DNA of 64,000 nucleotides from Nannocystis bainbridge. GTDB taxonomy: Bacteria; Myxococcota_A; Polyangia; Nannocystales; Nannocystaceae. Shown in pieces: positions 2,521 through 64,000 of the stretch. Location: the NCBI RefSeq assembly GCF_028368995.1, contig NZ_JAQNDL010000003.1, positions 2,528,001-2,592,000 on the forward strand, read 5' to 3'. The translations under genes and the position numbers were made by a program. Numbering within the stretch: the stretch's first letter is position 1; every line of letters begins with the position of its first letter. The notes under the pieces were generated by a model. It saw only the letters and a program-made list of their open reading frames with translations. It ran no database searches and was not told the DNA's origin.

Positions 2521-2563
2521 CTGTCCTCCGGGCCAGGTGGAAGTCACCTGGCCCTCGGGACAG
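2521..2563. terminator. Hairpin between convergent genes, built from two copies of the 14-bp motif
   Basis: CTGTCC-tccg-GGCCAGGTG-gaagt-CACCTGGCC-ctcg-GGACAG directly after the stop at 2519. Confidence 0.5.
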
Positions 2564-2622
2564 TCTGTCCGCCGACCGCGGCGCCCCCGATGTCCCGGCG
2601 GCGCCGCTTCGCGCGTCCGGCC

Positions 2623-5049
2623 TCAGCCCGGCAGCGGGCACTTGCCGGTGCCGCTGGCCGAGTTGTTGTCGACCCGGCACTCGTGCCACGCGTGCATCGG
2701 CATCGCATCGTCGACGACCACCCACACCACCGACGACCCGTCGAGCACCGCGGGCGGCGCGTTGGGCAGCAGCAGCGTCACGTCCTCGGCCTCGGCCGGG
2801 TACAGCACCTTGGTCGTCAAACCCGAGCCGAGCAGCACGCCGCCGTCGTTCGGGTCGCCCTCGAAGAAATGCACCGGCACGCCGGCCGGCACCGACGCCT
2901 CGCCGATGTTGCGCACGCGCCCGACCAGCCCGTACGGGTCGGGCTCGCACGCCAGACGCAGGTCGACGATCAGGTCGGGCGCCGCGAACTCGCCCTCGGG
3001 CTGGACGTTCTGGCGGTAGTTGTTGAGCCCGGGCGTGAGCCAGTTGGTCGGCTCGATCGCGGGGATCTTCCCGCCCTCCTCGGTGTTCGTGACGTGATAC
3101 GCGTGCTGGTTCCACACCCGCCGCGTCCGCACCCACTGGCCCTCGCTGTCGCCGAAGATCCGCACGCCCGTCTGCTTGGTCCCGTCGCAGGTGATGCCCG
3201 AGTAGTTGTTCGAGACCGCGACGATGTCCGCGTGGCCGTCGCTGTCCACGTCGGCGATCACCGGGTACTCCTGCAGCGTGCCGGTGGTATTGCAAGTGCT
3301 CCACAGCTCCTCGCCGTCGCTGCCGCGGTAGACGCGGAGCCGGATCTCGTCGGAGTAGACCACCTCCGCGCTGCCGTCGCCGTCGAAGTCGAACACCGAC
3401 GAGCCCGTCGACGCCGACGAGCAGTCGCGCGTCTGCTTGATCCACATGAACGTGTCCGCGTCGGCCACGTTCGGGTCCATCAGCTTCTTGCCGTCGAACA
3501 CCGCGTAGCCGACCCCGCCCGCGACCGCCACGTCGGGCGTGCCGTCGCCGTTGAAGTCGGCGATCGTCGGCGGCCCGCCGCCGCGCAGGTTGCCGGCCGA
3601 GCCCTCCGGGCACAGTTCCGGCGACAGCGCCCCGTTGATGTCGATGCCGGCGCGGAGGATCTGCGCCCCGCCCATCGCCTGCGGGTCGTGGCGCCACAGC
3701 AGCAGGTGGTGCGGCACCGTCATGCTGTTGGCGTTCGAGATCACCGCGACCTCCGGCTTGCCGTCGAGGTCGAGGTCGGCGATCGCGGGATAGGTCCCCT
3801 CGAGCCCGGTCGTCGCCAGCACCCCGCCGGCCGCGTTGAAGGCCCCGCGCGAGTAGACGATGTCGAGCTGCCCGTCGACATCGAGGTCGGCCGCCATGTT
3901 GTGACCGCCGACGCCGAGCATCAGCTTCGTCGCCCCCGTCGCTCCGTCGAGCACCGCGCCCGGCACCAGGATCTCCGGCTTGCCGTCCTGGTCGAGGTCC
4001 GCGATCGACACGAAGTTACAGGCCCCGCTGTACGTCGAGGTCCACAGCGGCTGGCCGTCGCCGGTGAACGCCCGCGTCTTGCCGCTCGACGAGCAGGCCA
4101 CCAGCTCGTTGCCCGGCAGGCCGTCGATGTCAGCGCCGGCCAGCTCGCGCCCGGGCGCGATCGGGTCGACCATGCCGGCGTTGTAGCTCCACTTCTCGAC
4201 GATCTCGCCGCCGACGATCGAGATCACGCGGATCGTCCCGTTGTCCTGATAGACCCCGCCGACGAACGTCGTGAACGCGATCTCCGGGATGTCGCGCTCG
4301 TCGACGATGCTGTCGCAGTTGTCGTCGTCGAGCTGGACCACGATCGGCGTCATCATCACCGTGCCGGCGTCCCAGTGGTACTTGACCGACGGCGTGAACT
4401 GGCCCGCGCCCGGGATGTACTGACAGGATGCCAGGCAGGTCGGCGGATCGCCCGGGTCCTCGCCCTCCAGGCACTTCGGCGGCGCCGGCAGGCACTTGCC
4501 CGTGGCCGGCACGATCCCGCCCATGCACATCTCGTCGCCGCCCATCATCGCCGGCTCGCCGAGGCTGTACTCGCAGTACTCCTCGTCGGCGCACTCGCTG
4601 GCGTCGATGCACGCATCGCCCGGCGTCACGCAGGCGTTGAACGAGCAGATGTCGCCCTGCGGGCAGCACACCTCGCCGCACGCGTGGTCCTCGTCCGGGC
4701 AGCACTCGGCGCCGATGCACACGCCCCCCTTCGCCTCGCAGTCGGCCGGGCACACCGCGCCGCCCGTCGTCTCGCTCGTGCTGCCCGTCGTCGGCTCGCC
4801 GGTCGTGGTCGACTCCGCCGCCGTCGTCGCCTCGCTCGCCGACTCGCTCCCGCCGCCCTCGCTCGTCGAAGTCGGCGCCGTCTCCGTCCCCGTCGGCGCC
4901 GTCTCCGTCCCCGTCGGCGCGCCCGTCCCGGTCGTCGGACCGCCCGTCATCGTCAGCCCCGCGCTGTCCGTCCGCCCGTCGTCCCCACAACCGCTCAGCG
5001 CCCCGCACAGCGCCGCTGCCCAGCCGATTCCCCGCAAGCTCGTCGTCAT
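2623..5049 (-). CDS. FG-GAP/VCBS repeat lipoprotein with Thr-rich stalk, Cys-rich region and C-terminal CARDB-like domain
   Basis: Signal and lipobox MTTSLRGIGWAAALCGALSGC. Multiple ADLDxDGxPE repeats. VRNIG CARDB-like motif. Confidence 0.85.
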   Translation of the reverse strand: MTTSLRGIGWAAALCGALSGCGDDGRTDSAGLTMTGGPTTGTGAPTGTETAPTGTETAPTSTSEGGGSESASEATTAAESTTTGEPTTGSTSETTGGAVCPADCEAKGGVCIGAECCPDEDHACGEVCCPQGDICSFNACVTPGDACIDASECADEEYCEYSLGEPAMMGGDEMCMGGIVPATGKCLPAPPKCLEGEDPGDPPTCLASCQYIPGAGQFTPSVKYHWDAGTVMMTPIVVQLDDDNCDSIVDERDIPEIAFTTFVGGVYQDNGTIRVISIVGGEIVEKWSYNAGMVDPIAPGRELAGADIDGLPGNELVACSSSGKTRAFTGDGQPLWTSTYSGACNFVSIADLDQDGKPEILVPGAVLDGATGATKLMLGVGGHNMAADLDVDGQLDIVYSRGAFNAAGGVLATTGLEGTYPAIADLDLDGKPEVAVISNANSMTVPHHLLLWRHDPQAMGGAQILRAGIDINGALSPELCPEGSAGNLRGGGPPTIADFNGDGTPDVAVAGGVGYAVFDGKKLMDPNVADADTFMWIKQTRDCSSASTGSSVFDFDGDGSAEVVYSDEIRLRVYRGSDGEELWSTCNTTGTLQEYPVIADVDSDGHADIVAVSNNYSGITCDGTKQTGVRIFGDSEGQWVRTRRVWNQHAYHVTNTEEGGKIPAIEPTNWLTPGLNNYRQNVQPEGEFAAPDLIVDLRLACEPDPYGLVGRVRNIGEASVPAGVPVHFFEGDPNDGGVLLGSGLTTKVLYPAEAEDVTLLLPNAPPAVLDGSSVVWVVVDDAMPMHAWHECRVDNNSASGTGKCPLPG

Positions 5050-5571
5050 CGGGCGGCAGGGTACAGACGCCCGCGCGAGCCGAGCAAGCCGCCGCGTGCG
5101 TCTCGTTGCGCGCCGCGTCCGCTGCGCGGCTCGATAACGATCGACGAAATCCACGTCACGCCGCGACCCCGCGACTTCCTCGTCGCTTTTAACATGTCCT
5201 GAAGGACAGGACATGTCCTGCGAATCCGCAGCGCGCCGCCGACCTGTCCCGCGCCGCAGCGCCGACGTAACCGATCGAACTACATGTCCGCAAAGACAGG
5301 TCCATCCGCAAGGTCGGAGCCGGGCCGGCGGACCCGCCGCCGTACGATCTTCCGTCGCGCACCCATCCGGACGGTCCCCCCGCGCCCCCTCGCCTCGTCG
5401 GGCCCCGACTGGCAGAGAGGCGGCCCTTTCGTAACTTTTGGCGTGCGCAACTGCGCCGCGCGATTCGACGCCGGCGCACGTCTGCTGGTGCCCCGAGACC
5501 ACACTCTGTTATTGAAGAGGGGTTTCTGGGCGACAGTTCTTTTCGCGGCCTGGCGCCGGCGTGGAGGAGTC

Positions 5572-7944
5572 ATGAAGCGATCCATCATCCGAATCAGCCA
5601 TCATTGTGCATCTGTCCTTTCGACCATGTGGATAGTGACCGCTTGCGGTCAGGGCGATCCGACGGCCACCGCGGGTGCGACCGACGGCTCGACTACCAGC
5701 GAGGTCCAGACCGGTACGACCGCCCCGGCCTCGACCGGCGTCATCCCGACCACCGGCACGCCGACGACGACGACGACGATCGGCATGAGCGGCACCGTCG
5801 ATCCGACCACCGACGGTCCTTCGACCACGACGACCACCACCACCGGCGAGACCGACAGCACCACCGGCGAGCCCGACCCCGTCTGCGGCGACGGCCAGCT
5901 CGACCCGGGCGAAGCCTGCGACGACGGCCCCGACAACGGCGCTGGCAAGCCGTGCAACATGCAGTGTCAGGCCAACACTTGCGGCGACGGCGATCAGGGC
6001 CCCGGCGAGGAGTGTGACGACGGCGCCGACAACATGGACACCAATAGCTGCAAGGCCGACTGCACCGACAACGTCTGCGGCGACGGGGCCGTCGGGCCGG
6101 GCGAGGGCTGCGACGACGGCAACGAAGACGATAGCGACGACTGTACCAATTCCTGCGCGCTCGCCAGCTGCGGCGACGGTATCGTCGCCCCGACCGAGCA
6201 GTGTGACGACGGCAACGCCGACAACAGCGACGATTGCACCGACACCTGCACCGACGCCACCTGCAGCGACGGTCACGTCCAGGACAGCGTCGGCGAACAG
6301 TGCGACGACGGCAACGCCAACGCCGACAACGCCGCCTGCACCACCAGCTGCAAGCTCAACGTCTGCGGCGACGGGGCCCTCTACAACACCGGCGACGGCA
6401 TCGAGGAGTGCGACGACGGCGTCGACAACGGGGCAGGCAAGGCCTGCAACGCCGGGTGTCAATTCAACACCTGCGGCGACGGCGACCAGGGCCCCGGCGA
6501 GGCCTGCGACGACGGCGACCTCGATCCGGGCGACGGCTGCTCGGCCACTTGCAAGCTCGAGGAGTGCGGCAACGGCACCCTCGATCCGGGCGAGGACTGC
6601 GACGACGGGCAGAACGGCGATGACGACGACGGCTGCACCGACAGCTGCGAGCTCCCCGCCTGCGGCGACGGCATCCATCAGCCCAACGAGGGCGAGCAGT
6701 GCGACTTCGGCGGCAGCAACAGCGACAGCGGCGCCTGCACCGTCGCTTGCAAGCTCGCCACCTGCGGCGACAGTTTCGTCCAGGCCAACGTCGAGCAGTG
6801 CGACGACGGCGTCAACAACGGCCCCGGCAAGCCGTGCAACGCCATGTGCAAGACCAACATCTGCGGCGACGGCGACAAGAGCCCCAGCGAGGCCTGCGAC
6901 GACGGCAACCAGAGCAACGACGACGCCTGCACCAACGTCTGCAAGCTCGCCACCTGCGGCGACGGCTTCAAGCAGCCCGGCGAGCAGTGTGACGCCGGCA
7001 TCGGCAACAGCAACACCGGCGTCTGCACCCTCGCCTGCAAGAACCCGATCTGCGGCGACACCTTCGTCCAGCCCGGCAAGGGCGAGCAGTGCGACGACGG
7101 CAACCTGTCCGACAACGACGCCTGCCTCAACACCTGCAAGTCCGCCAGCTGCGGCGACGCCATCGTCCATCAGGGCGTGGAGCAGTGCGACGACGGCAAC
7201 GCCAACAACAACGATTTCTGCAACAATCAGTGTCTGCTGCCGACCTGCAGCGACGGCGTCAAGAACGGCAGCGAGAGCGACGTCGACTGCGGCGGCTCGT
7301 GTGGCAAGTGCGGCCTCGGCGGCTCGTGCCAGAACAACAGCGACTGCGCCCAGCAGGCCTGCATCAACAACGTCTGCGCATTGACCAAGAGCTGCAAGGA
7401 GCTCAAGCAGGCCAACCCCGCGCTCGGCGACGGCGACTACACCATCGATCCGGACGCCGGCGGCGCGGTCCAGCCGCTCGTCGTCCATTGCGACATGGAC
7501 GCCGGCGCCTGCGGCTACACCATGGTCCGCTTCAACGATAACGCGCTCGGCAGCCACCAGGACGCCTACACCAACAAGTGCGCCGCCGTCGGCATGGAGG
7601 TCATCGTCCCGCGGACAAAGGTCCACGCCACCGCGATCGTCGGCTGGAACGGCGGCGTCGTGCCCAACCTCTACAACGTGTTCCCCAAGAACAACGGCGC
7701 CCAGGCCATCACCAACTGGACCGGCCGCTGCCAGGGCCAGCCGTGCACGTTCTGGATGACCGACAACGCCCAGGGCAACGTCTCGTGCATGGCGCCGCCC
7801 TCGTTCGAGCCCAACGGCGACAACAGCGTCAATTATCGCATCTACAAGTGGAACGAGGGCTGCGGCATCGAGGGCGGCTGGAACGACGCCAACGCCTCGG
7901 TCATGTACACCGGCTGGGTGGTCTGCTCGACCAACGACTGCTGA
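5572..7944 (+). CDS. Myxococcus cysteine-rich repeat (DUF4215-type) lipoprotein with fibrinogen-like hinge and variable C-terminal domain
   Basis: GGAGG RBS. VTAC lipobox. Many CGDG...GEeCDDGN repeats. SCKELK...GDYTIDPD...VHCDMD. Confidence 0.85.
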   Translation: MKRSIIRISHHCASVLSTMWIVTACGQGDPTATAGATDGSTTSEVQTGTTAPASTGVIPTTGTPTTTTTIGMSGTVDPTTDGPSTTTTTTTGETDSTTGEPDPVCGDGQLDPGEACDDGPDNGAGKPCNMQCQANTCGDGDQGPGEECDDGADNMDTNSCKADCTDNVCGDGAVGPGEGCDDGNEDDSDDCTNSCALASCGDGIVAPTEQCDDGNADNSDDCTDTCTDATCSDGHVQDSVGEQCDDGNANADNAACTTSCKLNVCGDGALYNTGDGIEECDDGVDNGAGKACNAGCQFNTCGDGDQGPGEACDDGDLDPGDGCSATCKLEECGNGTLDPGEDCDDGQNGDDDDGCTDSCELPACGDGIHQPNEGEQCDFGGSNSDSGACTVACKLATCGDSFVQANVEQCDDGVNNGPGKPCNAMCKTNICGDGDKSPSEACDDGNQSNDDACTNVCKLATCGDGFKQPGEQCDAGIGNSNTGVCTLACKNPICGDTFVQPGKGEQCDDGNLSDNDACLNTCKSASCGDAIVHQGVEQCDDGNANNNDFCNNQCLLPTCSDGVKNGSESDVDCGGSCGKCGLGGSCQNNSDCAQQACINNVCALTKSCKELKQANPALGDGDYTIDPDAGGAVQPLVVHCDMDAGACGYTMVRFNDNALGSHQDAYTNKCAAVGMEVIVPRTKVHATAIVGWNGGVVPNLYNVFPKNNGAQAITNWTGRCQGQPCTFWMTDNAQGNVSCMAPPSFEPNGDNSVNYRIYKWNEGCGIEGGWNDANASVMYTGWVVCSTNDC

Positions 7945-11137: not shown

Positions 11138-11207
11138 TGATCCTTCGGGCATGTCCCATCGGACATGCTCCTTCGGACCTGTCCTTTCGCACCTGCTCCT
11201 CGGGAAC
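11138..11207. repeat. Five tandem 14-bp TGTCC-N4-GGACA-type units
   Basis: TGATCCTTCGGGCA/TGTCCCATCGGACA/TGCTCCTTCGGACC/TGTCCTTTCGCACC/TGCTCCTCGGGAAC. Confidence 0.75.
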
Positions 11208-13813: not shown

Positions 13814-16021
13814 GTGTCTCCCCGCCGCCTCCGTCACGTCGTCCTCGCGGCCAGCCTCGGCGTCGCGGCCCTCGCCCTGGTCGGCGCCGGCCCGCCCGCG
13901 CCCGCCGGCCCGGACGCCCCGTCCGACCAGTTCTCGGCCACCCGCGCCCGCGACGAGCTCGCGCACCTGCTCGGCGACCAGCGCCCGCACCCGGTCGGCT
14001 CCGCCGCCAACGACGCCGTGCGCGCCCGCCTGGTCGCCCGCCTGCGCGCCCTCGGCCTCGAGCCCGAGGAGCAGCGCAGCTTCGCCTGCAGCGACGCCGG
14101 CACCTGCGCCCCGGTGACCAATGTGATCGCCTGGCTCCCGGGACAGGTCGCCGGCCCGGCCCTGGCGATCACCTCGCACTACGACTCGGTCGGCGCCGGC
14201 CCGGGCGCAGCGGATGACGGGCACGGGGTGGCGACGACGCTGGAGCTGCTGCGGATCTTGCTCCCGCTCCCGCGCCATCCGCCGCTGGTGGCGGTGTTCA
14301 CCGACGGCGAGGAGGCCGGCCTGCTCGGCATGCGGGCCTTCGCCGAGCACCCCCGCGCCAGCGAGATCGGCGTCGTCCTCAACCTCGAGGCCCGCGGCAC
14401 CACCGGCGCCGCCAGCATGTTCGAGACCAGCGACGGCAACAGCGCCCTGATCGCCGCGTTCGCCGGCGCCGGCGCCAGCGCCCTCTCACTGTCCTACGAG
14501 ATCTACCGCCGCCTGCCCAACGACACCGATCTCACGGTCGTCAAGCAACACGGCCTTCAGGGCATGAACTTCGCGTTCATCGGCGGCGTGCTGCGCTACC
14601 ACACCCCGCGCGACGACCTCGACCACCTCGACCTCGGCAGCGTGCAGCAGCAAGGCGACGCCGTCCTCGCCACCGCGCGCAACCTGCTGGCCGCCGAGCT
14701 GCCGCCGCCCTCGCCCCACAACGCCCACTACGTCGACCTGCTCGGCCTCTTCTTGCTGCGCTGGCCCGCATGGGTCGACGTCCCGCTGGCCGCCGCCGCC
14801 CTGCTCGCCCTGCTCCTCACCGCGTTTCGCCGCCGCCGCGAGCTGACCCCGCGCGCCGTCCTGCTGGCCCTCGCCGCCCCGTTCGTCGCCGTGCTCGCGG
14901 CCGCCGTCGCCGCGACCGGCCTGCTGCGCGCCGCCGAGGCTCTCACCAACCCGCTCGGCCCCTGGCGCGCCTCCACCTCGCTCGCGCTGCTCGGCCTCGC
15001 CGCCGCCGCCGTCGCTGCCAGCCTCGCCGCCGCCCGCCCGCTGATCCGCCGCGCCGGCCCGCTCGCCCAGTCGCTCGTCACCTGGCTGCTGTGGACCGTG
15101 CTCGCCCTCGTCGTCGCCACCCAGGTCCCCGGCGCCGCGATCCTCCTGCTCGCGCCCGCCGTGCTCGCCGCGATCGCCCCTGCCTCTCGCCTCGCCCCGA
15201 TCGCCGCCGCCCTGCTCGCCGTCGCCGTGTGGGCCCCGCTCGGCCCGGCCCTCGTCGAAGCCCTCGGCCTCGACCCCGTGCTCGTCGGCGCGACCGTCGG
15301 CTGGCTCGTCACCGCCCTGCTCCCCACATGTCCCGAAGAACCTGGTGAAAAGACCCTGTCCCTATGGACATGGTCTTTCGCGCTGGTCGCCCTCCTCGCC
15401 GTCGGCGCCGCCGCCCTCGCCCCGCGCCACGACTTCGACCACCCGAGCAAGGCCAACCTCGTCCACCTCACCGACCTCGACCTCGGCCGCGCCTGGCACG
15501 TCGTCGACGCCCCGGCCGGCGTGCCCGGCCCGCTCGCCGACGCCCTCGCGTGGGACCAGCCGCGCCCGCTGCTGCCGTGGTCGAGCCGCCCCGTGCCCGC
15601 GGCCCCCGCGACCCTGCTGAGCGACGACGGCCCTCGCCTCGAACCGCGGGCTCCGGCCGCGAGCGATCTGCCGGGCCGCCTCGTCATGACCTTGCGGGCT
15701 CGCCCCGGCGCGCTCGGCTCCATGCTCGTCATCCCCGCCGGCGCCGTCGCCACCCTCCGCGTCGGCGGTCGCGTCCTCGAGCCGTCGCGGCTTCGACCTG
15801 GCCCTTCGGACACCCGCATCGTCACCGTGTTCGGCTCCGCGGCCGAGGGCGTCGAGGTCGTCGCAGACATCACCACCGCCGCCGCGTGGACCCTCGTCGA
15901 CATCGCCCCCGGGCTCGCGCCCGACGCCCCGAAGCACGCGCGCCCCGAGTGGGCCGTGCCCTATCAATGGGGTGACTGGATCGCCGCGCGTCGCAGCTTC
16001 ACACCGCCCACCGCGCAATGA
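13814..16021 (+). CDS. Membrane-bound M28 family metallopeptidase
   Basis: SHYDSV, GAADDG, DGEEAGLLG, NLEARG, YHT motifs followed by many TM helices. Confidence 0.88.
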   Translation: MSPRRLRHVVLAASLGVAALALVGAGPPAPAGPDAPSDQFSATRARDELAHLLGDQRPHPVGSAANDAVRARLVARLRALGLEPEEQRSFACSDAGTCAPVTNVIAWLPGQVAGPALAITSHYDSVGAGPGAADDGHGVATTLELLRILLPLPRHPPLVAVFTDGEEAGLLGMRAFAEHPRASEIGVVLNLEARGTTGAASMFETSDGNSALIAAFAGAGASALSLSYEIYRRLPNDTDLTVVKQHGLQGMNFAFIGGVLRYHTPRDDLDHLDLGSVQQQGDAVLATARNLLAAELPPPSPHNAHYVDLLGLFLLRWPAWVDVPLAAAALLALLLTAFRRRRELTPRAVLLALAAPFVAVLAAAVAATGLLRAAEALTNPLGPWRASTSLALLGLAAAAVAASLAAARPLIRRAGPLAQSLVTWLLWTVLALVVATQVPGAAILLLAPAVLAAIAPASRLAPIAAALLAVAVWAPLGPALVEALGLDPVLVGATVGWLVTALLPTCPEEPGEKTLSLWTWSFALVALLAVGAAALAPRHDFDHPSKANLVHLTDLDLGRAWHVVDAPAGVPGPLADALAWDQPRPLLPWSSRPVPAAPATLLSDDGPRLEPRAPAASDLPGRLVMTLRARPGALGSMLVIPAGAVATLRVGGRVLEPSRLRPGPSDTRIVTVFGSAAEGVEVVADITTAAAWTLVDIAPGLAPDAPKHARPEWAVPYQWGDWIAARRSFTPPTAQ

Positions 16022-21873: not shown

Positions 21874-22008
21874 GCACGCCCATGATCGCCAGCTCCAGCC
21901 CCCTCTTCAAGCCCGGCACCGTGACGATCATCACCGCCGCCGCGGCCGGGCTCGCTCCCATACCTGACCTTTGCGACAGCCTCGTCGGCCGGCTTCGCCA
22001 CCTGTCCC

Positions 22009-22539
22009 TTGCGACATCCGGCGCCGCCCCCCGCCTCGTGCGGGCGGTGCTATAGTCGCGCCCGTTTGCCGCCTCTCGGCCGCACCAGCCTCCTCGGCAC
22101 GCTGCTCGCCTACGCCGGCCTCACCCTCGGCGTCTGCATCCTCTCGCGCGCGTCGGCCTGCGCGGGCGCGCCCCAGCCCGCCAGCCACGGCACCGCCGCC
22201 GAGGAGACCGCCCTGTGGGCCTTCTTCGGACCTGTCGCTCCGGGCATGTCGCTCGGGACATGGTCCATCGTACATGTCACTCCGCCGCGCGGCGGCTCGG
22301 TGATCTTCACCCTGCGCGCCGCCGGCCTCCCCGACCTCGAGCTCGCCGTCACCCGCCTCGTGCCCGACGGCCCGCGCCCGCTGGCCCGCACCGCTCACCT
22401 GGCGCTGTACCTCGCCCGACCTGACCCTTCGGACAGCCCTACCCCATCCGCGACCCTCGCCGCCGCCACCGCCCTCGCCGAGGCCTTCACCGCCCGCGAG
22501 GCCGCCATGTCCCCGCCGCTCGCGCCCCTCACCCCCTGA
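22009..22539 (+). CDS. Hypothetical exported protein (start uncertain)
   Basis: Hydrophobic N-terminal segment; host-like codon pattern in this frame. Confidence 0.45.
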   Translation: MRHPAPPPASCGRCYSRARLPPLGRTSLLGTLLAYAGLTLGVCILSRASACAGAPQPASHGTAAEETALWAFFGPVAPGMSLGTWSIVHVTPPRGGSVIFTLRAAGLPDLELAVTRLVPDGPRPLARTAHLALYLARPDPSDSPTPSATLAAATALAEAFTAREAAMSPPLAPLTP

Positions 22540-22613
22540 ACGAGCGGCCAGCTCGCTCTTACAACCTGTCTCTTCGGACATCCTATCCGGCACCTCAGCC
22601 AGCCCCTCCGCCT

Positions 22614-22757
22614 CTCTCTTCCACATCCTCGACTGGCCCTCTCCGCTCACCGAACCACGCCCTGTCCGCTCGACCAGCATCGCCCCTCTCGTCCACATCC
22701 TCGACCATCGCTCACCGCTCCTCGAACCACCGCCTGACCCATCGGCCAGCCTCGCCC
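22614..22757. repeat. Imperfect 2 x 72-bp intergenic tandem duplication
   Basis: CCACATCCTCGAC at 22621 and 22693; remainder aligns without gaps. Confidence 0.7.
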
Positions 22758-26727: not shown

Positions 26728-26853
26728 TCTGTCCCAAGGGACATCTCACCGGACCTCCTGTGTGGTCCGGCGCTCGCCGAGTCGCCGGACCGCACGACGA
26801 CTCGGCCGCTCGGACAGTTGCGCCCGTCAGCGCGATCGGTAAGCTGGGCGGCT

Positions 26854-29108: not shown

Positions 29109-29113
29109 CTCCT

Positions 29114-39478: not shown

Positions 39479-39665
39479 GCGTCGACTGCCACCATTCAGG
39501 TCAGGCCCGGCCGCGCCACGCGCGAGCCGGGCTGCTGTGTTTGCCCTGCCTCAATGATCATAGCATCCGGTGAGCCCGAGGCGATGGACAGGTTCGGCAC
39601 GTCGCGCCGCAGCCGGCGCGGGACCGCGCCGGCTCTCCATCGACTAGTCCTTCAGGACATGTCCC

Positions 39666-41033
39666 TCAGAACACGTGGCCGACGTCGACGTAGAAGCCCT
39701 GCGTCTTGTCGGTCGGCGAGTACGCGCCGTCGAAGCGGACCAGGAACGTCTCGCCCCAGCGCACGCGCAGGCCGCCGCCGGTGCCGAGCTTGAAGGTGCC
39801 GCCGTCGATGCCCTGGCCGCCGAGCTCCGTGCGGCCGAAGTCGGCCCAGATCCGCGCGGCGTCGAGGAACGCCACCGCGCCGACCGTGAAGTGGTTGTTC
39901 TTGATCGTGAACTTCCAGAACATGCTGCGGAGCTCGAGGTTCTGGATCAGCTTGATCTTGCCGGCGTAGCGCTGGCGCGGCACCCCGCGCAGCGACCACC
40001 CGCCGCCCGGGCCGTCGCGGGGCATCAGCGCGCCGAAGCGCGTCAGCTCGTAGAACGGCGCGTCACCGACGATCACGTCGGCGACCCCGCGGATCGCAAA
40101 CGACAGCCACTCGCCGAGGAACGCCTTGTACCACGCGCTGTTGAGGCTGAACGCCGCGTAGCGCAGGTTCTGCTGGACCCCCGGCGAGGCGCGGACCGTC
40201 AGCTCGGTGAAGGTCCCGCGGGTCGGCGTGTACTCGTGGTCGCGGGTGTCGAACAGCGCGCCCGCGCTGAGCACCACGAGCGCGTGCGGATCTGTCCCCT
40301 GGAGCAGGTTGCCGAGCGCCTTGCCGTCGGGCGTGCCCGACGCCTTGAGGGCGATGTCCTGCTCGAGCAGGCTGCCGGCGTACGGCCGCACGATGTTGTA
40401 GGTCGTGTTGAGCCCGACCAGCGCCTCGATGCGGCGCCGCTGCTGCACCGTCGAACGGTCCCACACCTTGATGCGGGCGTTGAAAAGCAGCAGTGGGTAG
40501 ATGTGATCGAAGCGGTGGTAGCGGCGCGCGGCCTGGTAGGCCATCAACTCCTGGTCGGGGTCGATGCCCTCCCACGGCTCGGTCGCCGCCGAGTCGTTGC
40601 CGAACCCGTAATAGCCGGTGTTGGCGAACTTGCGGAAGCCGACGCGCGCGGTGATCCGCAGGCGGTCGCCGGCCAGCCCGGGGAAGTCCATGTTGAGGTA
40701 GTCGTCGTGGAACGGCACCTCGATGCCGCGGCCCGGCGCGCGCTTGGCGTTCGCCGACAGCAGCAATTCGAGGCGCCAGCGGTACGGGCGATAACCCGGC
40801 GAGAAGCGGGCCACGCTGGCGATCAGGCCGAAGCCGAGCCCGAGGTCGCTGTCGTAGCTGAGGGCCGGCAGCGCCCCGATCTCGATGCGCTCCGGCTTCG
40901 GCGGGCCCTTCGGCTTCTTCGGCTGCTTCGGCTTCTTGACCCGATCCTTGGCGGCCGCGGCCACAGGCACAGGCGCAGCGATCGCGCAGACCACCAATGC
41001 CGCCAGCAGCGCGGGCAGCCGGCGCCGGCACAA
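39666..41033 (-). CDS. Omp85/BamA-TamA family outer-membrane beta-barrel (start uncertain)
   Basis: SYDSDLGLG; DTRD; SLRG..RY; ELR; G.GLR; C-terminal Phe (GHVF). Confidence 0.8.
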   Translation of the reverse strand: MCRRRLPALLAALVVCAIAAPVPVAAAAKDRVKKPKQPKKPKGPPKPERIEIGALPALSYDSDLGLGFGLIASVARFSPGYRPYRWRLELLLSANAKRAPGRGIEVPFHDDYLNMDFPGLAGDRLRITARVGFRKFANTGYYGFGNDSAATEPWEGIDPDQELMAYQAARRYHRFDHIYPLLLFNARIKVWDRSTVQQRRRIEALVGLNTTYNIVRPYAGSLLEQDIALKASGTPDGKALGNLLQGTDPHALVVLSAGALFDTRDHEYTPTRGTFTELTVRASPGVQQNLRYAAFSLNSAWYKAFLGEWLSFAIRGVADVIVGDAPFYELTRFGALMPRDGPGGGWSLRGVPRQRYAGKIKLIQNLELRSMFWKFTIKNNHFTVGAVAFLDAARIWADFGRTELGGQGIDGGTFKLGTGGGLRVRWGETFLVRFDGAYSPTDKTQGFYVDVGHVF

Positions 41034-55413: not shown

Positions 55414-55431
55414 CGGCCCGCCTCGCAAGCA

Positions 55432-55529
55432 TGTCCTCCAGGGCATGCCTCAAAGACAATGCCCCGAAGGACATGGCTTCTCGGTCATGTCCTTTCGAGC
55501 ATGCCCGAGAGACCATGTCCTCTCGCGCT
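55432..55529. repeat. Seven tandem 14-bp motif units
   Basis: TGTCCTCCAGGGCA/TGCCTCAAAGACAA/TGCCCCGAAGGACA/TGGCTTCTCGGTCA/TGTCCTTTCGAGCA/TGCCCGAGAGACCA/TGTCCTCTCGCGCT. Confidence 0.8.
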
Positions 55530-56001: not shown

Positions 56002-56112
56002 GGCCGTTCTCCTCGTCCTCACCCTCCACGTCGAAGCCGAACCCGCCGGTTCGACATCACCCCGAAGATTTTTTCGCGCCCCTCGCGCAAACCTCGATCT
56101 ACCGGTCCGCAG

Positions 56113-57691: not shown

Positions 57692-58621
57692 ATGATCGAC
57701 ATCGTATGGGACATGGAGACCGGCGACCCCGACGACTTTCTCACCCTGCTGCTGCTGCTCGGCCACCCGCAGGTCAACCTCAAGGCCGTCACCGTCACGC
57801 CCGGCACCCCCGATCAGGTCGGCGTCGTCCGTCGCGCCCTCGAGTGGTTCGGCCGCGACATCCCGGTCGGCGCGCACGACCTCGATCATCAGCCGCGCTC
57901 GGTCCGCGAGGGCAACGGCCCCGGCGACGGCCGTCACGGCGCGCGCGGCGTGTGCGTGTCTTCGTGGCACTACAAGGCCTACGGCGACATCCCGCCCTCG
58001 CGCGACGCGGCCCCCGGCGGCGAGGTCTTGCACGCCCACTGCGACGAGTCGACCACCCTCGTCACCGGCGCGCCGCTCAAGAACCTCGGCGCCGCCATGC
58101 GCCTGCCGAACTTTCGCGTCGGCCGCCTCGTCGTCCAGGGCGGCTTCGCCGGCGAGGGCGTGGTCCCGCCCGAGCGCCAGCTCGAGAAGTTCCGCGGCCT
58201 CGTCACCTGCCCGACCTACAACCTCAACGGCGACCCGCGCTCGGCCGAGGCCGCGCTCGTGCACCCTGGCATCGGCGTGCGCCGCTTCGTCGCCAAGAAC
58301 GTGTGCCACGGCGTCTACTACGACGCCGACATGCACGCCGCCGTGACCGCCGTCAAGCACCGCAGCATCTCGCTGCAGCGCATCTGGCAGGGCATGGAGG
58401 TCTACCTCGACAAATCGCCCGCAGGTAAAAAGTTCCACGACCCGCTCGCCGCCTGCTGCGCGATCGACGAGGCGATCGGCGAGTGGGCCGAGGTCGAGCT
58501 CTACCGCGCCCGCGGCGGCTGGGGCTCGCGCCTGAGCCCGGGCTCGAACACGTGGATCATCACCGGCCACGACCACGCCCGCTTCGTCCGCACCCTGCTG
58601 GCCACCGAGCCACCTGTCTGA
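57692..58621 (+). CDS. Nucleoside hydrolase (IU-NH family)
   Basis: DMETGDPDD; PLKN; YN..DP; FHDPLA. Confidence 0.82.
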   Translation: MIDIVWDMETGDPDDFLTLLLLLGHPQVNLKAVTVTPGTPDQVGVVRRALEWFGRDIPVGAHDLDHQPRSVREGNGPGDGRHGARGVCVSSWHYKAYGDIPPSRDAAPGGEVLHAHCDESTTLVTGAPLKNLGAAMRLPNFRVGRLVVQGGFAGEGVVPPERQLEKFRGLVTCPTYNLNGDPRSAEAALVHPGIGVRRFVAKNVCHGVYYDADMHAAVTAVKHRSISLQRIWQGMEVYLDKSPAGKKFHDPLAACCAIDEAIGEWAEVELYRARGGWGSRLSPGSNTWIITGHDHARFVRTLLATEPPV

Positions 58622-58742
58622 AGGGCCAGGCTCGAAGCGGCACCGCGCGCCTCTCCCCTGTCCTCATGGACATGTCTGCTCGCCACCGGCTCACGGGCAT
58701 CGAGGTCCGCGACCGCCTCGCGCGCGTGGCCTCACGCCCCTC

Positions 58743-59633
58743 GTGATCCCCGCCGCGCCTGGCGTGCTACAACCCAAGCGCGTGGAGGTCGAGCGCACCC
58801 GACACGGGCCCTTCGAGCGGCTGTCCTTCGCCTTCGCCACTGCGACGGGTCGCAGCCAGCACTCCGTCTATCGCCTCGGTGACACCTTGATCGACGCTGG
58901 CGGCACCGTCGCCACCAAGGAGCTGCTCGCCCTCCTGCGCGATCGGCCCCCGCGGCGGATCGTCTGCACCCATCAGCACGAGGATCACGTCGGCAACATC
59001 GCCGCCATCCGGCGCGCCTTCGGCGACCTGCCCGTGTTCGTCCCCCGGCATCACGTCCCGATCGTCACCACCACGGCGCGGATCCCCGAATATCGCGCCC
59101 TGTTCTGGGGCCACCCCGAGCCCAGCGGCCCCGTCGAGCCCTACGACCCCGGGGCTGTCTTCGAGGACAGCTCCGTCGCCCTCGAGGCCGTGCTCACCCC
59201 TGGCCACACTCCCCATCACATCACCTTCGTCGCCCGCGACGGCGCCACCACCTACGCCCTCACCGCCGACCTCTACACCTCGCGTCCGCTCGAGGGATGG
59301 TTCGAGTCGGCCGCCGACGACATGATCGCCTCGCTGCGCCGCATCGCCGCCCGGACCCCGGACCTGGTCGTGCTGCCGAGCCACGGCCGGATCAAGCCCG
59401 ACGGCGCACGTGTCCTTTCAGACATGTCCGTCTGGATCGAGCGCGAGGCGACGCGGATCCACCTCGCCGCCGAGCGCCTCGGCACCCGCGACCCGCGGGC
59501 CATCGCCGCCGCCGTCTACGCCGACCTCGGCCCCGACCTCGCCGACCTCGGCTCCGGCGGCGAGATCAGCCGCGCCGGCTTCGTCCGCTCGATCCTCAGC
59601 CCCAACCGCGGCCTGCCCGTCGACCCCCCGTGA
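58743..59633 (+). CDS. MBL-fold metallo-hydrolase
   Basis: LIDAG; THQHEDHVG; TPGHT; PSHG. Confidence 0.85.
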   Translation: MIPAAPGVLQPKRVEVERTRHGPFERLSFAFATATGRSQHSVYRLGDTLIDAGGTVATKELLALLRDRPPRRIVCTHQHEDHVGNIAAIRRAFGDLPVFVPRHHVPIVTTTARIPEYRALFWGHPEPSGPVEPYDPGAVFEDSSVALEAVLTPGHTPHHITFVARDGATTYALTADLYTSRPLEGWFESAADDMIASLRRIAARTPDLVVLPSHGRIKPDGARVLSDMSVWIEREATRIHLAAERLGTRDPRAIAAAVYADLGPDLADLGSGGEISRAGFVRSILSPNRGLPVDPP

Positions 59634-59639
59634 GCCGCG

Positions 59640-60473
59640 TCATTGCGGCCGCGGATCGCGGATCGAAAGGATCTTGATCCGGTCTTCCTCCTGCATCAGC
59701 TCGATCTTCATCAGCCGCACCGACCGCTCGCAGTTCAGGTGGATCAGCGTGCCGCGCACGCTGACGAGGTCGGGCTCGCCGAGCGAGCAATCGCCGTGCT
59801 TCGACCGCACGTCGAGCAGGAACCGGCGGATCTTCTCCTCCTCGAACTTCTCGCTGAAGCTGCGGCGAAACAGCGCCGGGTCCCACTGGTCGTACAGCCG
59901 CATCACCGCCTCGGCGGCCGCGCGCACCGGCTCCGCGAGCGCGACGCCCCGCGCGGCCATCATGATGCGGGCGATCTTGCCGGTCTCCGGCGACAGCGAG
60001 AACTGCACCTCGAGCTGCCCGTGCTCGCACTCGTGGCGGTACCGCACCGCCTCGTCCTTCACCATCATCGGTTCGCCGGCGCCGCACTCGCCCACGCGCG
60101 CCCGCAGCCACTGCACCCACTCCTCGAGCCCGACCGAAGGCTTCTCATACAGACCCGCCGCCGCCTCGAGATCGAACGTGTTGAACAGCGCGATCACCTG
60201 CGACGCCGCCTGCGCCTGCTCGTGGCTCGGCGGCCGCGGCACCCGCCAAAGCAGCTCGACGAGCCCCTCGGTGAACCCCGCCAGCCGCTGATTCTTTGAT
60301 GCGGGGGACGCCTCCTCGATGACGGAGCTGCTCCCCGTCTGCGAATCGCCCTCCGCTCGCGGCCCCGCCCCCTCGGTCGTCGAGCCGTCGGCGGTCGACG
60401 GCGATCCACCTGCGAAGAACACCAGGCCGATCGCAACGATCAGCGACGCCAGCAAGATCAGTCGTAAGCGCAT
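59640..60473 (-). CDS. Exported hypothetical protein with an internally duplicated domain
   Basis: N-terminal hydrophobic segment; LRARVGEC...ECEHG is echoed by VRSKHGDC...NCERS. Confidence 0.6.
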   Translation of the reverse strand: MRLRLILLASLIVAIGLVFFAGGSPSTADGSTTEGAGPRAEGDSQTGSSSVIEEASPASKNQRLAGFTEGLVELLWRVPRPPSHEQAQAASQVIALFNTFDLEAAAGLYEKPSVGLEEWVQWLRARVGECGAGEPMMVKDEAVRYRHECEHGQLEVQFSLSPETGKIARIMMAARGVALAEPVRAAAEAVMRLYDQWDPALFRRSFSEKFEEEKIRRFLLDVRSKHGDCSLGEPDLVSVRGTLIHLNCERSVRLMKIELMQEEDRIKILSIRDPRPQ

Positions 60474-60564
60474 ATCCGCCAGCATAACCGAGCGCCGTCG
60501 AACGCGCGCGAGGCGGATCCATCGATCCATGTTCCTGCCCCTTTAGGACAGGATGACCCCGACC

Positions 60565-63500
60565 CTAAGGCCCCGAGAGCGCCGCCAGCTCGGGCCGCGC
60601 GCGGATGATGTCGTCGACCAGCAGCGGCATGTCCGACGCTGCCCTCGCCGCCTCCGCGTGCTCCGCCGCCGCCGTGCGGTCTCCGGCCTCTGCCGCCAGC
60701 GACGCCAGGTCCAGCAGCAGCATGCTCGCGCGCAGCGACACCGCCTGATCGGCGCGACGGCACAGCTCGAGCGCCCTACTAAAATCATCGCGGGCCGGCC
60801 CCGGTCGCTTCGCCCGTCGCTGCAGCCGCGCGCGCCAGGTCAGCAGGTCGGCCGCGCGCAGCATCGTCGCCGGGCTGCTCCCCGGCGGCGCCAGCGACTC
60901 GGGCGCCAGGCTCGACAACATGTCCAAAAAGACAGGTGCCACCCGCGGATCGTCGAGGTGATTGACCCCCGTGTTGCGCCACGCTTCCGCCAGCACGTCG
61001 AAGTAGCGCGCCTCCCACATGGCCCGAAGGACAGATCCGACCTCCGCGTGGTACCCTCGCAGCAGTGTATGCAGCGCCCCGCGGGCTGCTGGATCTTCGC
61101 TCGCCAGCAGCGCCTGCCACAGCGGCGCCGCCTCGGCCGCGCGCCCGGCCTGGACCAGCAGCAGCGCCTGCAACGCCTGCTCACGCGGCCCCGCCGGCCC
61201 CGAGCTCGCCAGCGCCGCCAGCGTCGCCACTGCGTCACCCTCGACCGCCGCCGCCGCGTACTGTCGCGCCGCTGCCGGCCTCGCCTCTGCCTCGTCCTCG
61301 ACCGCCGCGGCTTGCGAAGCCTCGGCCTGCGGCTCGACGATCCGCGCCCCGCGGATCGCCACCTGGTGGACCTGCGCCGACAGCCACGCCGGCACGTCCC
61401 CGCCCGCGCGCAGGATCAGCCGATAGCGCCCTGGCCGCCCGAGCCGCCCCGTCAGCCGCTCGCGCATCGTCCGTGATGCCCCGTCGTCGACATCCGTCAG
61501 CGTGCAGCCCAGCTCGCCCAGCGGCGCCACCGCGAACACTCGCAGCCGCCCGCGCGAGCGCACCGCCGGGTCCGCCGGCAGCAGCGGCGGCTCGTGATTG
61601 ACATAGAACCGCTGCTCTCCGGCCTGACACTGGTACTCGCGCAGCGTCGGCTGCCCGCCGCGGCTGGTCCCGTGCGTCATCAGCCCCAGGCGCAGCACTG
61701 GCCGCTCCGGCTCCGCCTCGGGCACCAGCTCGAGCACCAGCGACGCGCTCCACTCGCTGTGCTCGAGCGTCACGTCGAAGCTCACGTCGATCGTCTCGCC
61801 GTCCCACTCGAGCGGCAGCTCCGCCAGCGGGCCTGCGCTGGCCGTGCGGACCTGCAGCGTCCCTTCCAGCGGTCTTCGGCGCAGCGCCAGCGCATCTGCG
61901 ATCGTCCACGCCGGCGCCAGCGGGCGCTCGAAGCCGATGTCGATCGGCGGGTGCTCGTAGGTCGCCCGCACCAGCCGCTCGCGCTGCGTCAGCAGCTCCG
62001 CCGCCTCGTCCGCCGCCAGCCCTGGCCGCGTCCGCAGCGACTCGAGCGCGCGCAGGGCCCGGTCGTACTCGCCGAGCCGCAGGTGCGAGCGGAACGCCCC
62101 CTGCAGCGCCGCCGTCGCCTCGTCGCCCTCCGCCGCCGCGCGGTACAGCGCCAGCGCGGCCGCGTCGTCGCCCAGCCGCTCGCGCAGCCCCGCCGCGTCG
62201 ACCAGCACCGCCCGTCGCAGCTCGCCCGGCGGGCTGCGCCGCGCCAGCGCCTCGTACGCCGCCGCCGCGTCGGCCGTCAGCCCCAGCCGCCGCAGCTCGT
62301 CGGCCCCGGCGAACGCCCGCCGCAGCCCCTCGTCGCTCACCCCTGACCGATCGGGCATGTCCTCGCGGACAGGTTGCGAGATCGGCAGCTGCTCCGTCCC
62401 TGCTCCCAGCAGCCACAGCTCGAGCGCCCCCGTGCGCGCCTGGACCTTCGCCACCAGCTCGTCCGCGCGGTCGTCGTCGACCTGCACCAGCCGCAGCACC
62501 TCGATCCCGTCGAGCACCGCTGGCACGAACCCGCCGCGCTCGTCCTGCAGCTGCACGATCGAGTGCCGGACCCCGCGCTCGAAGTAGTGATTGACGAAAT
62601 CACCGCGCCCGTCGCCGTCGACATCGCCGACCAGCGGCTGCCAGTGGACCCCGTCGGCCTTGCCGCCCTCGTCGTCGCGGAGGAACGGCACGTGCGCGCG
62701 GCGGACCAGCCGGTCGTTCGACAGCGCCAGCAGGTACGTCCCCGGCGGCGCCCCGTGCGGCTGGTCCGCCGGGAACACCAGCGGATTGGGCTCGCGGTGG
62801 AACACCTCGGCCACCACCTGCACCTCCCCCCGATCGCCGCGCAGCGTCCCGAGCCCGAACGCCTGGCCGATCTTGTCGCGCGCCACCGTCACCAGCTTGC
62901 CTGTCCCCGGGGACAGCCGCAGCACGCGCACGTCGTAGGCTCGCCAGCCGCCGAACGCCGCCACCAGCTCCTGGCGCCCGTCGCCGTCGAGGTCGGTCGC
63001 CAGCAGCGAAGTCACGACCGACTCGACGCTGTCGCCGACGTCGTAGACCATGCGCGTGGTGAAGCCGCCGGCCCCGTCGGGCTCGACCGCGGTGATCTGG
63101 CACGAAGAACCTGTCCCGACGTACAGCTCGCGCTCGCCGTCGCCGTCGAGGTCGGCCGCGGCCGTGGCGAGCACCTGGCTCTCGGGCCAGGTGAAGATCT
63201 TCTCGATCCCGCCGCCGCTGCGCCGCCCGTACAGCGTCAGGCCGTCCTCCTGCGCGATCACCTGCCCGCGCAGCGGATCGACCACGTCGACGCGGCCGGT
63301 CCCCGGCGGGAACGCGTGCTTCCACTTCGGCGCCAGCGCGCCGTCGGCCGTCGCCGCGTGCAGCACCGGCGGCCCCTGCCCCTGCTCGAGCAGCCACACC
63401 TCGTCGCCGACGCGGCCGTAGACGTGGTGCACGTCGGTGAACGCGGTCCGGTGCGCCAGCGCCAGCGCCTCCGCCAGCGCCCGCTTCGGCCCGGTCAGCC

Positions 63501-64000
63501 GGGTCGCCGCCGCCGCGAAATCGCGGCGGGCCAGCGCCACGTCGCCGCGCACCGCCGTCAACGTCAGGTCGGCCGCCGCCTCGGGGTGGCGCTGGTCGAG
63601 CAGCGCCAGCACCTGCCCCAGGCCGTCCCACGCCATCTCGGCGCGCAGCAGCCCGACCAGGCCGAGCAGCGCTTCACGGCTGTCCTTTGGGTCATGTGCC
63701 AGCGTGAACGCCCGCGCCTGGGCCGAGATCGCCGCCTTGCGCTGGCCATCGGCCTCGCGCCGGCTCGCCTCGCCAAGCCACGCGCGGGCGATCGCGCGGG
63801 TGTCCTTGTAGACAGGCTCGCCCAGGAACCCGGCCAGCAGCCGCTCCCCCGCCGCCGCGTCGCCCGCCGCCCGCGCCTCGGCGATGCGCGCCTCGAGCTC
63901 GACCACCGCCGCGGCCGCGTCCTCTTCTCGCTGCGCCCGCCGCAGGCGCTGCTGCAGCGCCTGCACCAGCAGCCCGACCGCGATCACGATCGCCGCCGTC
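60565..64000 (-). CDS. Large FG-GAP plus TPR-like protein; N-terminus lies outside the window
   Basis: DLDGDG.EL repeats; helical TPR-like segments; frame open to the window edge. Confidence 0.75.
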   Translation of the reverse strand, partial: TAAIVIAVGLLVQALQQRLRRAQREEDAAAAVVELEARIAEARAAGDAAAGERLLAGFLGEPVYKDTRAIARAWLGEASRREADGQRKAAISAQARAFTLAHDPKDSREALLGLVGLLRAEMAWDGLGQVLALLDQRHPEAAADLTLTAVRGDVALARRDFAAAATRLTGPKRALAEALALAHRTAFTDVHHVYGRVGDEVWLLEQGQGPPVLHAATADGALAPKWKHAFPPGTGRVDVVDPLRGQVIAQEDGLTLYGRRSGGGIEKIFTWPESQVLATAAADLDGDGERELYVGTGSSCQITAVEPDGAGGFTTRMVYDVGDSVESVVTSLLATDLDGDGRQELVAAFGGWRAYDVRVLRLSPGTGKLVTVARDKIGQAFGLGTLRGDRGEVQVVAEVFHREPNPLVFPADQPHGAPPGTYLLALSNDRLVRRAHVPFLRDDEGGKADGVHWQPLVGDVDGDGRGDFVNHYFERGVRHSIVQLQDERGGFVPAVLDGIEVLRLVQVDDDRADELVAKVQARTGALELWLLGAGTEQLPISQPVREDMPDRSGVSDEGLRRAFAGADELRRLGLTADAAAAYEALARRSPPGELRRAVLVDAAGLRERLGDDAAALALYRAAAEGDEATAALQGAFRSHLRLGEYDRALRALESLRTRPGLAADEAAELLTQRERLVRATYEHPPIDIGFERPLAPAWTIADALALRRRPLEGTLQVRTASAGPLAELPLEWDGETIDVSFDVTLEHSEWSASLVLELVPEAEPERPVLRLGLMTHGTSRGGQPTLREYQCQAGEQRFYVNHEPPLLPADPAVRSRGRLRVFAVAPLGELGCTLTDVDDGASRTMRERLTGRLGRPGRYRLILRAGGDVPAWLSAQVHQVAIRGARIVEPQAEASQAAAVEDEAEARPAAARQYAAAAVEGDAVATLAALASSGPAGPREQALQALLLVQAGRAAEAAPLWQALLASEDPAARGALHTLLRGYHAEVGSVLRAMWEARYFDVLAEAWRNTGVNHLDDPRVAPVFLDMLSSLAPESLAPPGSSPATMLRAADLLTWRARLQRRAKRPGPARDDFSRALELCRRADQAVSLRASMLLLDLASLAAEAGDRTAAAEHAEAARAASDMPLLVDDIIRARPELAALSGP

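Follow-up and report, generated by a model that had tools for sequence, protein, structure and literature searches.

A two-fold symmetric DNA word, TGTCC-N4-GGACA, lies within genes and in phased rows at gene ends of Nannocystis and is conserved among its relatives

What keeps a 14-bp interrupted palindrome, TGTCC-N4-GGACA, in place both within and between the genes of a soil myxobacterium? The question arises from a 64-kb stretch of Nannocystis bainbridge DNA with ~70% G+C (contig NZ_JAQNDL010000003.1, positions 2,528,001 to 2,592,000; the whole stretch is called the window in the following), which belongs to an 11.05-Mb assembly of five contigs (GCF_028368995.1). A first-pass annotation, made from the letters alone, had listed seven perfect and 28 degenerate copies of this word in the window and had proposed an undescribed chromosome-organisation or nucleoid-protein site system. 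All seven perfect copies were confirmed at their positions, while 0.05 were expected and none of 100 shuffles reached seven. The degenerate copies were all recovered, 22 of them with one mismatch and six with two, together with six one-mismatch copies that had been missed (15799, 26151, 48642, 55432, 55460 and 59156). With at most one mismatch, the window thus holds 35 copies compared with 1.71 expected. With at most two mismatches the count is 79 against 26.85 expected, so that about one third of the two-mismatch matches are due to chance; three such 'copies' (29389, 29505 and 29611) are parts of three similar tRNA genes. The tRNA genes, twelve in number, form a tight array on the plus strand at 29021-31018, which is the stretch with the lowest GC content of the window (0.644).

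The abundance of the word is a property of the whole genome. Genome-wide 1987 perfect copies were counted, corresponding to 151-225 per Mb on each contig, while the reversed-pattern control gave 3 and the swapped arm order GGACA-N4-TGTCC gave 13. The distance between the arms is fixed: compared with 1987 copies with N4, there are only 16 with N3, 8 with N2, 5 with N5 and 3 with N6. Among the over-represented 8-mers of the genome, GACATGTC ranks second with 2237 copies, 30-fold over base composition. The word had been said to match no known site, and in the searched literature, outside which most subscription journals and supplements lie, no published description of it was found when it was written in four ways. 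Judging by title or the start of the abstract, none of the literature that pairs 'Nannocystis' with 'palindrom' deals with this word.

The logo of the unit spans ~20 bp and reads R-C-(A/C)-TGTCC-YYRR-GGACA-(T/G)-G-Y, with no GTAG or CGTC tag of the kind seen in repetitive extragenic palindromes (REPs). Beyond these 20 bp nothing is conserved except faint echoes at plus/minus 14 and 28. The annotated preference for CC or CA on the left is borne out, position -2 being C in 67% and position -1 being A in 52% or C in 43%. Of the further claim that the arms are conserved and the spacer is free, the first part holds; the 4-bp spacer is free in sequence, but YYRR with a central CG is preferred and its length does not vary. 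When the other four arm pairs are perfect, G1/C12 hardly ever varies, C3/G10 and T0/A13 are strongly kept, a transition is accepted at C4/G9, and T2/A11 is the loosest pair. Positions 2/11 are occupied by T-A in 1987 cases, by C-A in 381, by T-G in 314 and by C-G in 146. Among variants with a single changed base, transitions at arm positions 5/10 are the most frequent, and changes in a single arm far outnumber paired changes that keep a stem. The half-site CATGTCC (n=3806) faces an arm with at most two mismatches in 72% of cases, compared with 11% at random. Partnered half-sites and single-arm changes together indicate that the unit is the whole palindrome and that it is set by sequence, not by pairing.

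To place the copies relative to genes, we used our own codon-likelihood caller, trained on the long open reading frames (ORFs) of the genome. Of the perfect copies, 703 of 1987 lie more than 60 nt inside called genes; in the window 18 of the 35 copies with at most one mismatch lie in called genes, in agreement with the annotated occurrence within ORFs on either strand. The enrichment persists over a codon-preserving shuffle, which had been suggested as a check: 4772 confident coding sequences (7.24 Mb) contain 627 copies, compared with 15.4 after a synonymous-codon shuffle within each gene (41-fold) and 3.0 after a codon-order shuffle (five rounds per type). For copies at least 180 nt inside a gene, the frame of the gene was the best frame on both flanks in 509 of 590 cases; random genic points gave 1795 of 1863 in the same test. 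The word is read in several frames, as V-[P/L]-x-D, as [L/M]-S-x-[G/R]-T and rarely as C-P-x-G-[Q/H], without conservation of any other residue. In the window, the word is hosted by unrelated genes, which encode an M28 peptidase, a member of the pyridoxal-dependent decarboxylase family, a TauD dioxygenase, a protein of the metallo-beta-lactamase fold and an FG-GAP protein. The word is a DNA signal overlaid on coding sequence and not a protein motif. A few low-complexity proteins repeat it. In a protein of 1485 amino acids (contig C2 of this genome, G000, 2066053-2070511, minus strand) repeats of the EAVPADS type each encode the palindrome, and with 19 units in 1.8 kb this gene forms the densest cluster of the genome.

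Conservation of the units was examined by aligning window positions 53000-64000 with five congeners. The closest Nannocystis genomes in the collection show 93-95% protein identity. A row of units behind the stop codon at 55413 is present at the same place in all six genomes; its CATG phase is kept while the spacers differ. Within genes, the units at 61020, 63112 and 63681 are found at the same position with at most one mismatch in each of the five relatives. Four of these also keep the unit at 63801, which has more mismatches in the fifth, and the unit at 59156 has at most one mismatch in four and two in the fifth. In the pair at 59411, the first unit is a perfect copy in every one of the five relatives and carries one G-to-A change in this genome; for the pair at 62344..62371 the relatives show C-A or T-A instead of C-G at arm positions 5/10. 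A gain is seen at 62902, where four relatives read GGTCCCCGGCGCCA and the fifth a variant of it; three substitutions in the arms thus created this unit, and its flanks hardly changed. If 62902 were read on the minus strand, as is only guessed, one of the changes would turn a favoured into a rare threonine codon.

On a larger scale, 560 kb around the window were compared with 400 kb of syntenic sequence per genome from three congeners; 35-46% aligned, at ~0.887 identity. At 24 in-gene perfect sites (64 site-pairs) the arms diverged by 0.050, the spacer by 0.113 and the flanks by 0.14-0.16. The synonymous-site conservation that the first-pass annotation had proposed to look for was present: third codon positions differed in 13 of 238 cases in the arms, in 210 of 1098 in the flanks and in 15 of 64 in the spacer. 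The effect is most apparent at disfavoured A/T third positions, which differed from the relative in 7 of 85 cases in the arms compared with 6869 of 10830 elsewhere; G/C third positions differed in 12 of 238 and 26294 of 191190 cases, respectively. As the pairs are not independent, Fisher values overstate these differences, but the A/T effect is still about eight-fold. Between genes, a relative also had a unit in the corresponding spacer in 79 of 117 comparisons if a unit is present here and in 13 of 250 if none is. Purifying selection on the arms is supported by these data. In-gene copies follow the sharing of the DNA: in this one region, the 156 kb of coding DNA that align to all three relatives contain 26, the 19 kb that align to one or two of them contain one, and the 51 kb without an alignment in any of the three contain none.

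The phyletic range of the word was determined in a survey of 61 genomes from 17 genera of the family. Copies per genome numbered 333-2090 in the genus of the window (eight genomes), 67-696 in genus g4 (seven genomes) and 87-169 in genus g2 (five genomes). In g28, 5-20 copies compare with 2-7 for the control, and the other 13 genera are at control level. Nannocystis is thus rich in the word, and two further genera of the family are enriched for it, though less densely. In one g4 genome about half of 15 sampled sites were coding, and rows were rare. The genus of the window itself splits into two depth groups, one with G001, G003, G005 and G010 and one with G002, G006 and G008. A conserved methylase is 92-94% identical in the four large genomes and 65-70% identical in the three smaller, fragmented ones (G002, G006 and G008), which also hold fewer palindromes per genome.

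Conservation in shared DNA would also be expected of a tag for self-DNA that spreads through biased uptake or recombination, as do the DNA uptake sequences (DUS) of Neisseriaceae and the uptake signal sequences (USS) of Pasteurellaceae and as is currently debated for the highly iterated palindrome HIP1 of cyanobacteria; we regard this as an unlikely alternative. According to it, a DNA receptor or recombination factor prefers tagged fragments, and by this drive the word accumulates in core DNA where the coding sequence permits it and piles up in the spacers at gene ends. The uptake words known so far are 9-12-mers without symmetry and not interrupted palindromes; DUS and USS have a demonstrated uptake function, whereas the Nannocystis word is a free-centred palindrome. 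They resemble it in their thousands of copies, placed permissively in genes and in gene-end spacers, and they are described as core-enriched, absent from recent acquisitions and highly conserved (PMC2397512). The restriction of in-gene copies to core DNA (26 in 156 kb of shared, none in 51 kb of unshared DNA) fits this explanation, as do the graded density of one word over three genera, the higher native codon score of genes followed by a unit and the origin of one site (62902) by three clustered substitutions. The competence protein ComEC is present, and HIP1 has been reported to raise transformation efficiency (10.1101/2024.09.10.611283). However, ComEC occurs in 58 of the 61 family genomes and does not track the motif, which makes it uninformative. 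In addition, terminal branches show no bias of gains toward the word, and a drive of this kind leaves the exact 14-bp register with unrelated spacers unexplained.

HIP1 (GCGATCGC), the function of which has been debated for decades, is itself similar to the Nannocystis word in being a short, hyper-abundant palindrome in genes and spacers that is conserved, restricted to a clade and without a known reader. It is reported to be over-represented 15- to 300-fold and conserved within and between ORFs, and a role in the nucleoid has been proposed (PMC5861425). The Nannocystis word is an interrupted 5-N4-5 palindrome and is arranged in phased rows at the 3' ends of genes; HIP1, by contrast, is an octamer without interruption that is linked to cognate methyltransferases (PMC4390886). 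Elhai's model for HIP1, in which a methyltransferase marks the word and repair restores near-cognate sites, would make the word a by-product of methylation-linked repair. Its abundance and in-gene conservation, which resemble those described for HIP1 (PMC4390886, PMC5861425), and the transitions among its commonest variants would fit such a model, to which we nevertheless give very little credence. Vsr is absent in all four genomes of the genus that were searched, and no C5 methylase (PF00145) was found in the genome. A single-copy D12 methylase is present in 59 of 61 family genomes and thus family-wide. Six PF01555 methylases were also considered, and none gives the + + - - - pattern expected for two motif-bearing and three motif-free genomes; their orthologues are either also found in motif-free genera or missing from motif-bearing ones. 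The nearest of these candidates, L178, has orthologues in G011 and G013, but also in the motif-free genome G031. Nor was directed conversion to the word seen among the changes on terminal branches, and the three-substitution gain at 62902 is an anecdote.

Two features that the first-pass annotation had missed are the bias of the units toward gene 3' ends and their arrangement in rows with a period of 14 bp. Although intergenic DNA makes up 17% of the genome, 1201 of the 1987 perfect copies (~60%) are intergenic. Their density is highest in convergent spacers (1.48 per kb), followed by tandem (0.62) and divergent ones (0.22). In tandem spacers the median distance is 82 nt to the upstream stop compared with 207 nt to the downstream start, and the centre of a unit is mostly 10-30 nt away from the upstream stop. 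Of 2571 convergent gene ends, 1106 (43%) have a unit with at most one mismatch no more than 100 bp from the stop, as have 787 of 4479 gene ends with a neighbour on the same strand. The native codon score is higher for genes that are followed by a unit. As candidates for an autoregulated reader, 82 genes have a perfect unit in a divergent upstream spacer; in the window, the units in such spacers flank FG-GAP, DUF4215 and Omp85 genes, not regulators.

The distances from unit to unit peak at 14 (485 cases), 28 (305), 42 (232), 56 (128), 70 (64) and 84 bp (32), while distances of 13 or 15 occur in fewer than 12 cases. The longest rows comprise eight units, counting those with at most two mismatches, and several rows extend without a break from one convergent stop codon to the other, their first unit taking its first three bases from the stop TGA. 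Identical spacers are shared by 19 of 485 adjacent units, compared with 1.7% of random pairs. As most adjacent spacers are unrelated, the rows are not simply recent tandem duplications, though some duplication occurs. In one spacer (G000 contig C2, ~1217400-1217850) a 36-bp minisatellite with ~8-10 copies carries a perfect or near-perfect unit in nearly every repeat.

High copy number, palindromy and clusters at gene ends are also properties of selfish mini-repeats copied by a transposase, of the REP/REPIN-RAYT kind or the kind of miniature inverted-repeat transposable elements. REPs and the bacterial interspersed mosaic elements (BIMEs) likewise consist of high-copy palindromic units in regularly spaced clusters in spacers at gene 3' ends; REPs are described as 20-40 bp long (PMC3733652) and as bound by several proteins (PMC2817692). 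The adjacent identical spacers and the minisatellite with the word in each repeat could be taken to favour such an origin, which we consider highly improbable for several reasons. None of the 585 perfect copies located 60 nt or more inside confident genes shares its flanks with another, 379 of them have no second unit within 200 bp, and nothing is conserved past 20 bp. In-frame copies cannot be 14-bp insertions, the new copy at 62902 was made by substitution and not by insertion, and positions are kept across species. REPs are extragenic by name, alternate in orientation and come with a RAYT, whereas the Nannocystis units are 14-20 bp long, symmetric in themselves and present in at least 500 copies in genes. 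No RAYT/Y1 transposase (PF01797) was found in the genome itself (90.5% complete), while the control was matched in 6 of 14 genomes.

Units directly behind stop codons, densest in convergent spacers, might instead act at the level of RNA, as a hairpin with a 5-8-bp stem and a tetraloop that serves as a factor-assisted bidirectional terminator or stabilises 3' ends, like TRIT or REP. The 20-nt unit folds at -8.4 kcal/mol compared with -2.3 for shuffled sequences, and the TRIT ('Tuberculosis Rho-independent terminator') elements of Mycobacterium are likewise palindromic, conserved in sequence, restricted to a genus and placed tightly at stop codons (PMC3152330). TRIT are described as mostly bidirectional, and their authors suspected an extra factor (PMC3152330). 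Against such a hairpin, which we judge improbable, stands the lack of compensatory covariation in the stem. Variants compatible with G.U pairing show no overall sense bias in tandem spacers (325 sense and 284 antisense, summed over five variants), nor does the orientation of the loop (CGAA 37, TTCG 29). No T tract follows the units: when oriented by transcription the flanks are mirror-symmetric, the downstream T corresponding to a mirrored upstream A. Moreover, at least 500 single copies are conserved within genes, where a terminator would do harm. TRIT also differs in having 147 copies and a long conserved stem that was modelled as RNA (PMC3152330), compared with ~2000 perfect copies, a 5-bp arm and 14-bp rows in Nannocystis. 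An Rfam scan of the window returned the 12 tRNAs only and no match at the units, and an RNA look-up gave nine metatranscriptome runs, contigs only, with small shares of 0.05-0.17. The missing covariation, strand bias and T tract, together with the conserved in-gene copies, point to a reader of two-fold-symmetric double-stranded DNA.

One such reader could be a type IIA topoisomerase, with the word as a hard-wired gyrase site like those of BIME-2 in Escherichia coli. The free 4-bp centre would correspond to the 4-bp staggered cut, and the rows would lie where positive supercoils collect between convergent genes. The two-fold symmetry, the unread centre of fixed length and the preference for convergent gene ends agree with this proposal, as does the report that the gyrase cut has a 4-bp stagger and that cleavage sites are over-represented in BIME-2, which are described as strong gyrase sites independent of transcription (PMC6379681). 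The published gyrase motif, however, is long, degenerate and phased at ~10 bp (PMC6379681), whereas the Nannocystis word combines a short length with sharp specificity, has a phase of 14 bp and lacks periodic flanks. The enzyme is also universal, yet 14 of the 17 genera show no enrichment of the word. A gyrase site appears very unlikely.

Whether the word organises the chromosome, as had been suggested, can be judged in part from its distribution. Per 250-kb bin the density is 4.8-31.6 per 100 kb across all five contigs, and 100-kb bins are over-dispersed (mean 18.0, variance 73.2). No empty or exclusive zone and no step at the GC-skew switch of contig 3 were observed in the five unscaffolded contigs, in which a shallow gradient between origin and terminus may be missed. 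Neither confinement to a macrodomain nor exclusion from one was found, copies being present in every 250-kb bin. The sites matS, Noc-binding sites (NBS), SlmA-binding sequences (SBS) and RacA ram are dispersed palindromes of 12-16 bp that are read by dimeric proteins; they number from tens to ~100 and are confined to or excluded from a macrodomain. The Nannocystis word differs from them in its ~2000 copies, its rows at gene ends and the lack of an extra ParB-type gene. Of the original proposal, a site system extending genome-wide through genes and spacers is retained, but the chromosome-organising role is not supported; the distribution is unlike that of matS, NBS, SBS or ram. A nucleoid role is possible and has also been proposed for HIP1 (PMC5861425).

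The explanation that we favour, at a confidence somewhat short of even, is that TGTCC-N4-GGACA is the site of a putative homodimeric, sequence-specific DNA-binding protein. The extended word RCA-TGTCC-YYRR-GGACA-TGY is a two-fold symmetric DNA word maintained by selection; its abundance, spacing, gene-end bias and phyletic spread are likewise shown by the data, and the protein, its dimeric nature and the function are inferred. The strongly kept bases T0, G1 and C3 and their mirror bases lie about one helical turn apart, so that two recognition elements could contact the DNA from one side in successive major grooves. The middle 4 bp are fixed in length and their bases unread. The geometry recalls the LexA box CTGT-N8-ACAG, the 5-N4-5 FNR box and parS, which we take to be hints on geometry only. 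Single sites are tolerated and kept inside core genes, and behind stop codons sites stack at the exact 14-bp period, where the edge of one unit serves its neighbour as the preferred flank (GGACA|TGTCC). Adjacent dimers would be turned against each other by 120 degrees (14 x 34.3 degrees), and with this offset overlapping 20-bp sites need not clash. The rows may represent protein-coated segments that mark gene ends, chiefly between convergent genes, and may act as barriers to the spread of transcription or supercoils or as nucleoid anchors.

A further-reaching version, which we consider conceivable but rather doubtful, regards the word as a private genome-wide address code of Nannocystis and two further genera: a dimeric protein would read a word that selection retains at thousands of positions, even where this requires rare codons, and rows would coat nearly half of the convergent gene ends, as a protein-based boundary or nucleoid system without a described bacterial counterpart.

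Several observations weigh against a dedicated reader protein with a role at gene ends. No such protein was found in single-query searches, made without proteome-wide profiling. There is no extra ParB/Noc paralogue, with one ParB_N per genome as in motif-free genera (proteins of the MatP, SlmA and RacA types were not searched), and the seven adenine/N4 DNA methylases do not follow the phyletic pattern of the motif in the genomes probed. The role at gene ends is read from the position of the units, and the gene caller is crude, with unreliable starts. One variant compatible with G.U pairing leans to the sense strand (113 compared with 77). The conservation sample consists of ~24 in-gene sites in one 560-kb region and of three relatives that are not independent. 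A stricter test on terminal branches, conditioned on agreement of the three other genomes and including five control words of like composition, gave the perfect sites only modest protection, with arm loss in 10 of 660 cases compared with 0.021-0.041 in the controls. In the same test, gains toward the word were no commoner than in the controls (2 compared with 4, 3 with 8 and 17 with 36). Finally, biased uptake or recombination would also yield symmetry and conservation.

Within the window, the units are placed as follows. In the convergent spacer between the genes ending at 2519 (plus strand) and 2623 (minus strand), two one-mismatch units 27 bp apart form a longer inverted repeat (2522..2562), the first starting 3 nt past the stop at 2519. 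The divergent spacer 4950-5635 contains a perfect unit at 5195 and a one-mismatch unit at 5285 (5195..5298), and the orthologous spacer holds units in all three relatives compared. A few nt past the stop at 11134 lies a phased run of about five 14-bp units (11138..11207), with a perfect unit at 11152 and a two-mismatch unit at 11180. Two units 28 bp apart (15329..15370, that at 15357 perfect) are located inside the M28-peptidase ORF, the same frame being best on both flanks. A loose cluster of eight degenerate units occupies a weakly coding stretch between genes (21965..22748). Perfect units are found 3 nt past the stop at 26727 (26730..26743) and 38 nt past the stop at 58621 (58659..58672), the latter without an aligned unit in the relatives. 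Two head-to-tail units (39646..39673) accompany the minus-strand Omp85-family gene 39666-40964, the second overlapping its stop codon. The row behind the stop at 55413 starts 17 nt past it in a convergent spacer and consists of seven 14-bp units, each beginning with CATG (55430..55527). The in-gene units comprise a one-mismatch unit in the gene of the metallo-beta-lactamase fold (59156..59169), a head-to-tail pair (59411..59438), one-mismatch units at 60921 and 61020 (60921..61033), a second head-to-tail pair with a perfect unit at 62358 (62344..62371), the perfect unit 62902..62915, which is found in this genome only, and one-mismatch units at 63112, 63681 and 63801 (63112..63814). Two large FG-GAP repeat proteins are encoded in the window, at 2623-4950 and 60565-63987, and the gene of the second bears nine units. 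The window also contains a gene (48784-50151) for a protein with a full HTTM domain (E 2.8e-91) and a lumenal domain of vitamin-K-dependent gamma-carboxylase (9.5e-42), a member of an animal-type enzyme family in a myxobacterium.

REP, HIP1 and DUS each opened a field, namely mobile-element domestication, nucleoid structure and self-recognition in transformation. The Nannocystis word adds a case from a different phylum with unusually clean features: a free centre of fixed length, rows with an exact 14-bp period, selection at disfavoured codon positions and a density graded over three genera. These features should make the reader protein findable by pull-down or phyletic profiling. As a practical use, the word marks native as opposed to acquired DNA in genomes rich in natural products. 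If the rows are indeed barriers at gene ends, they would show how a genome with 71% G+C and without U-tract terminators at these places separates its convergent transcription units.

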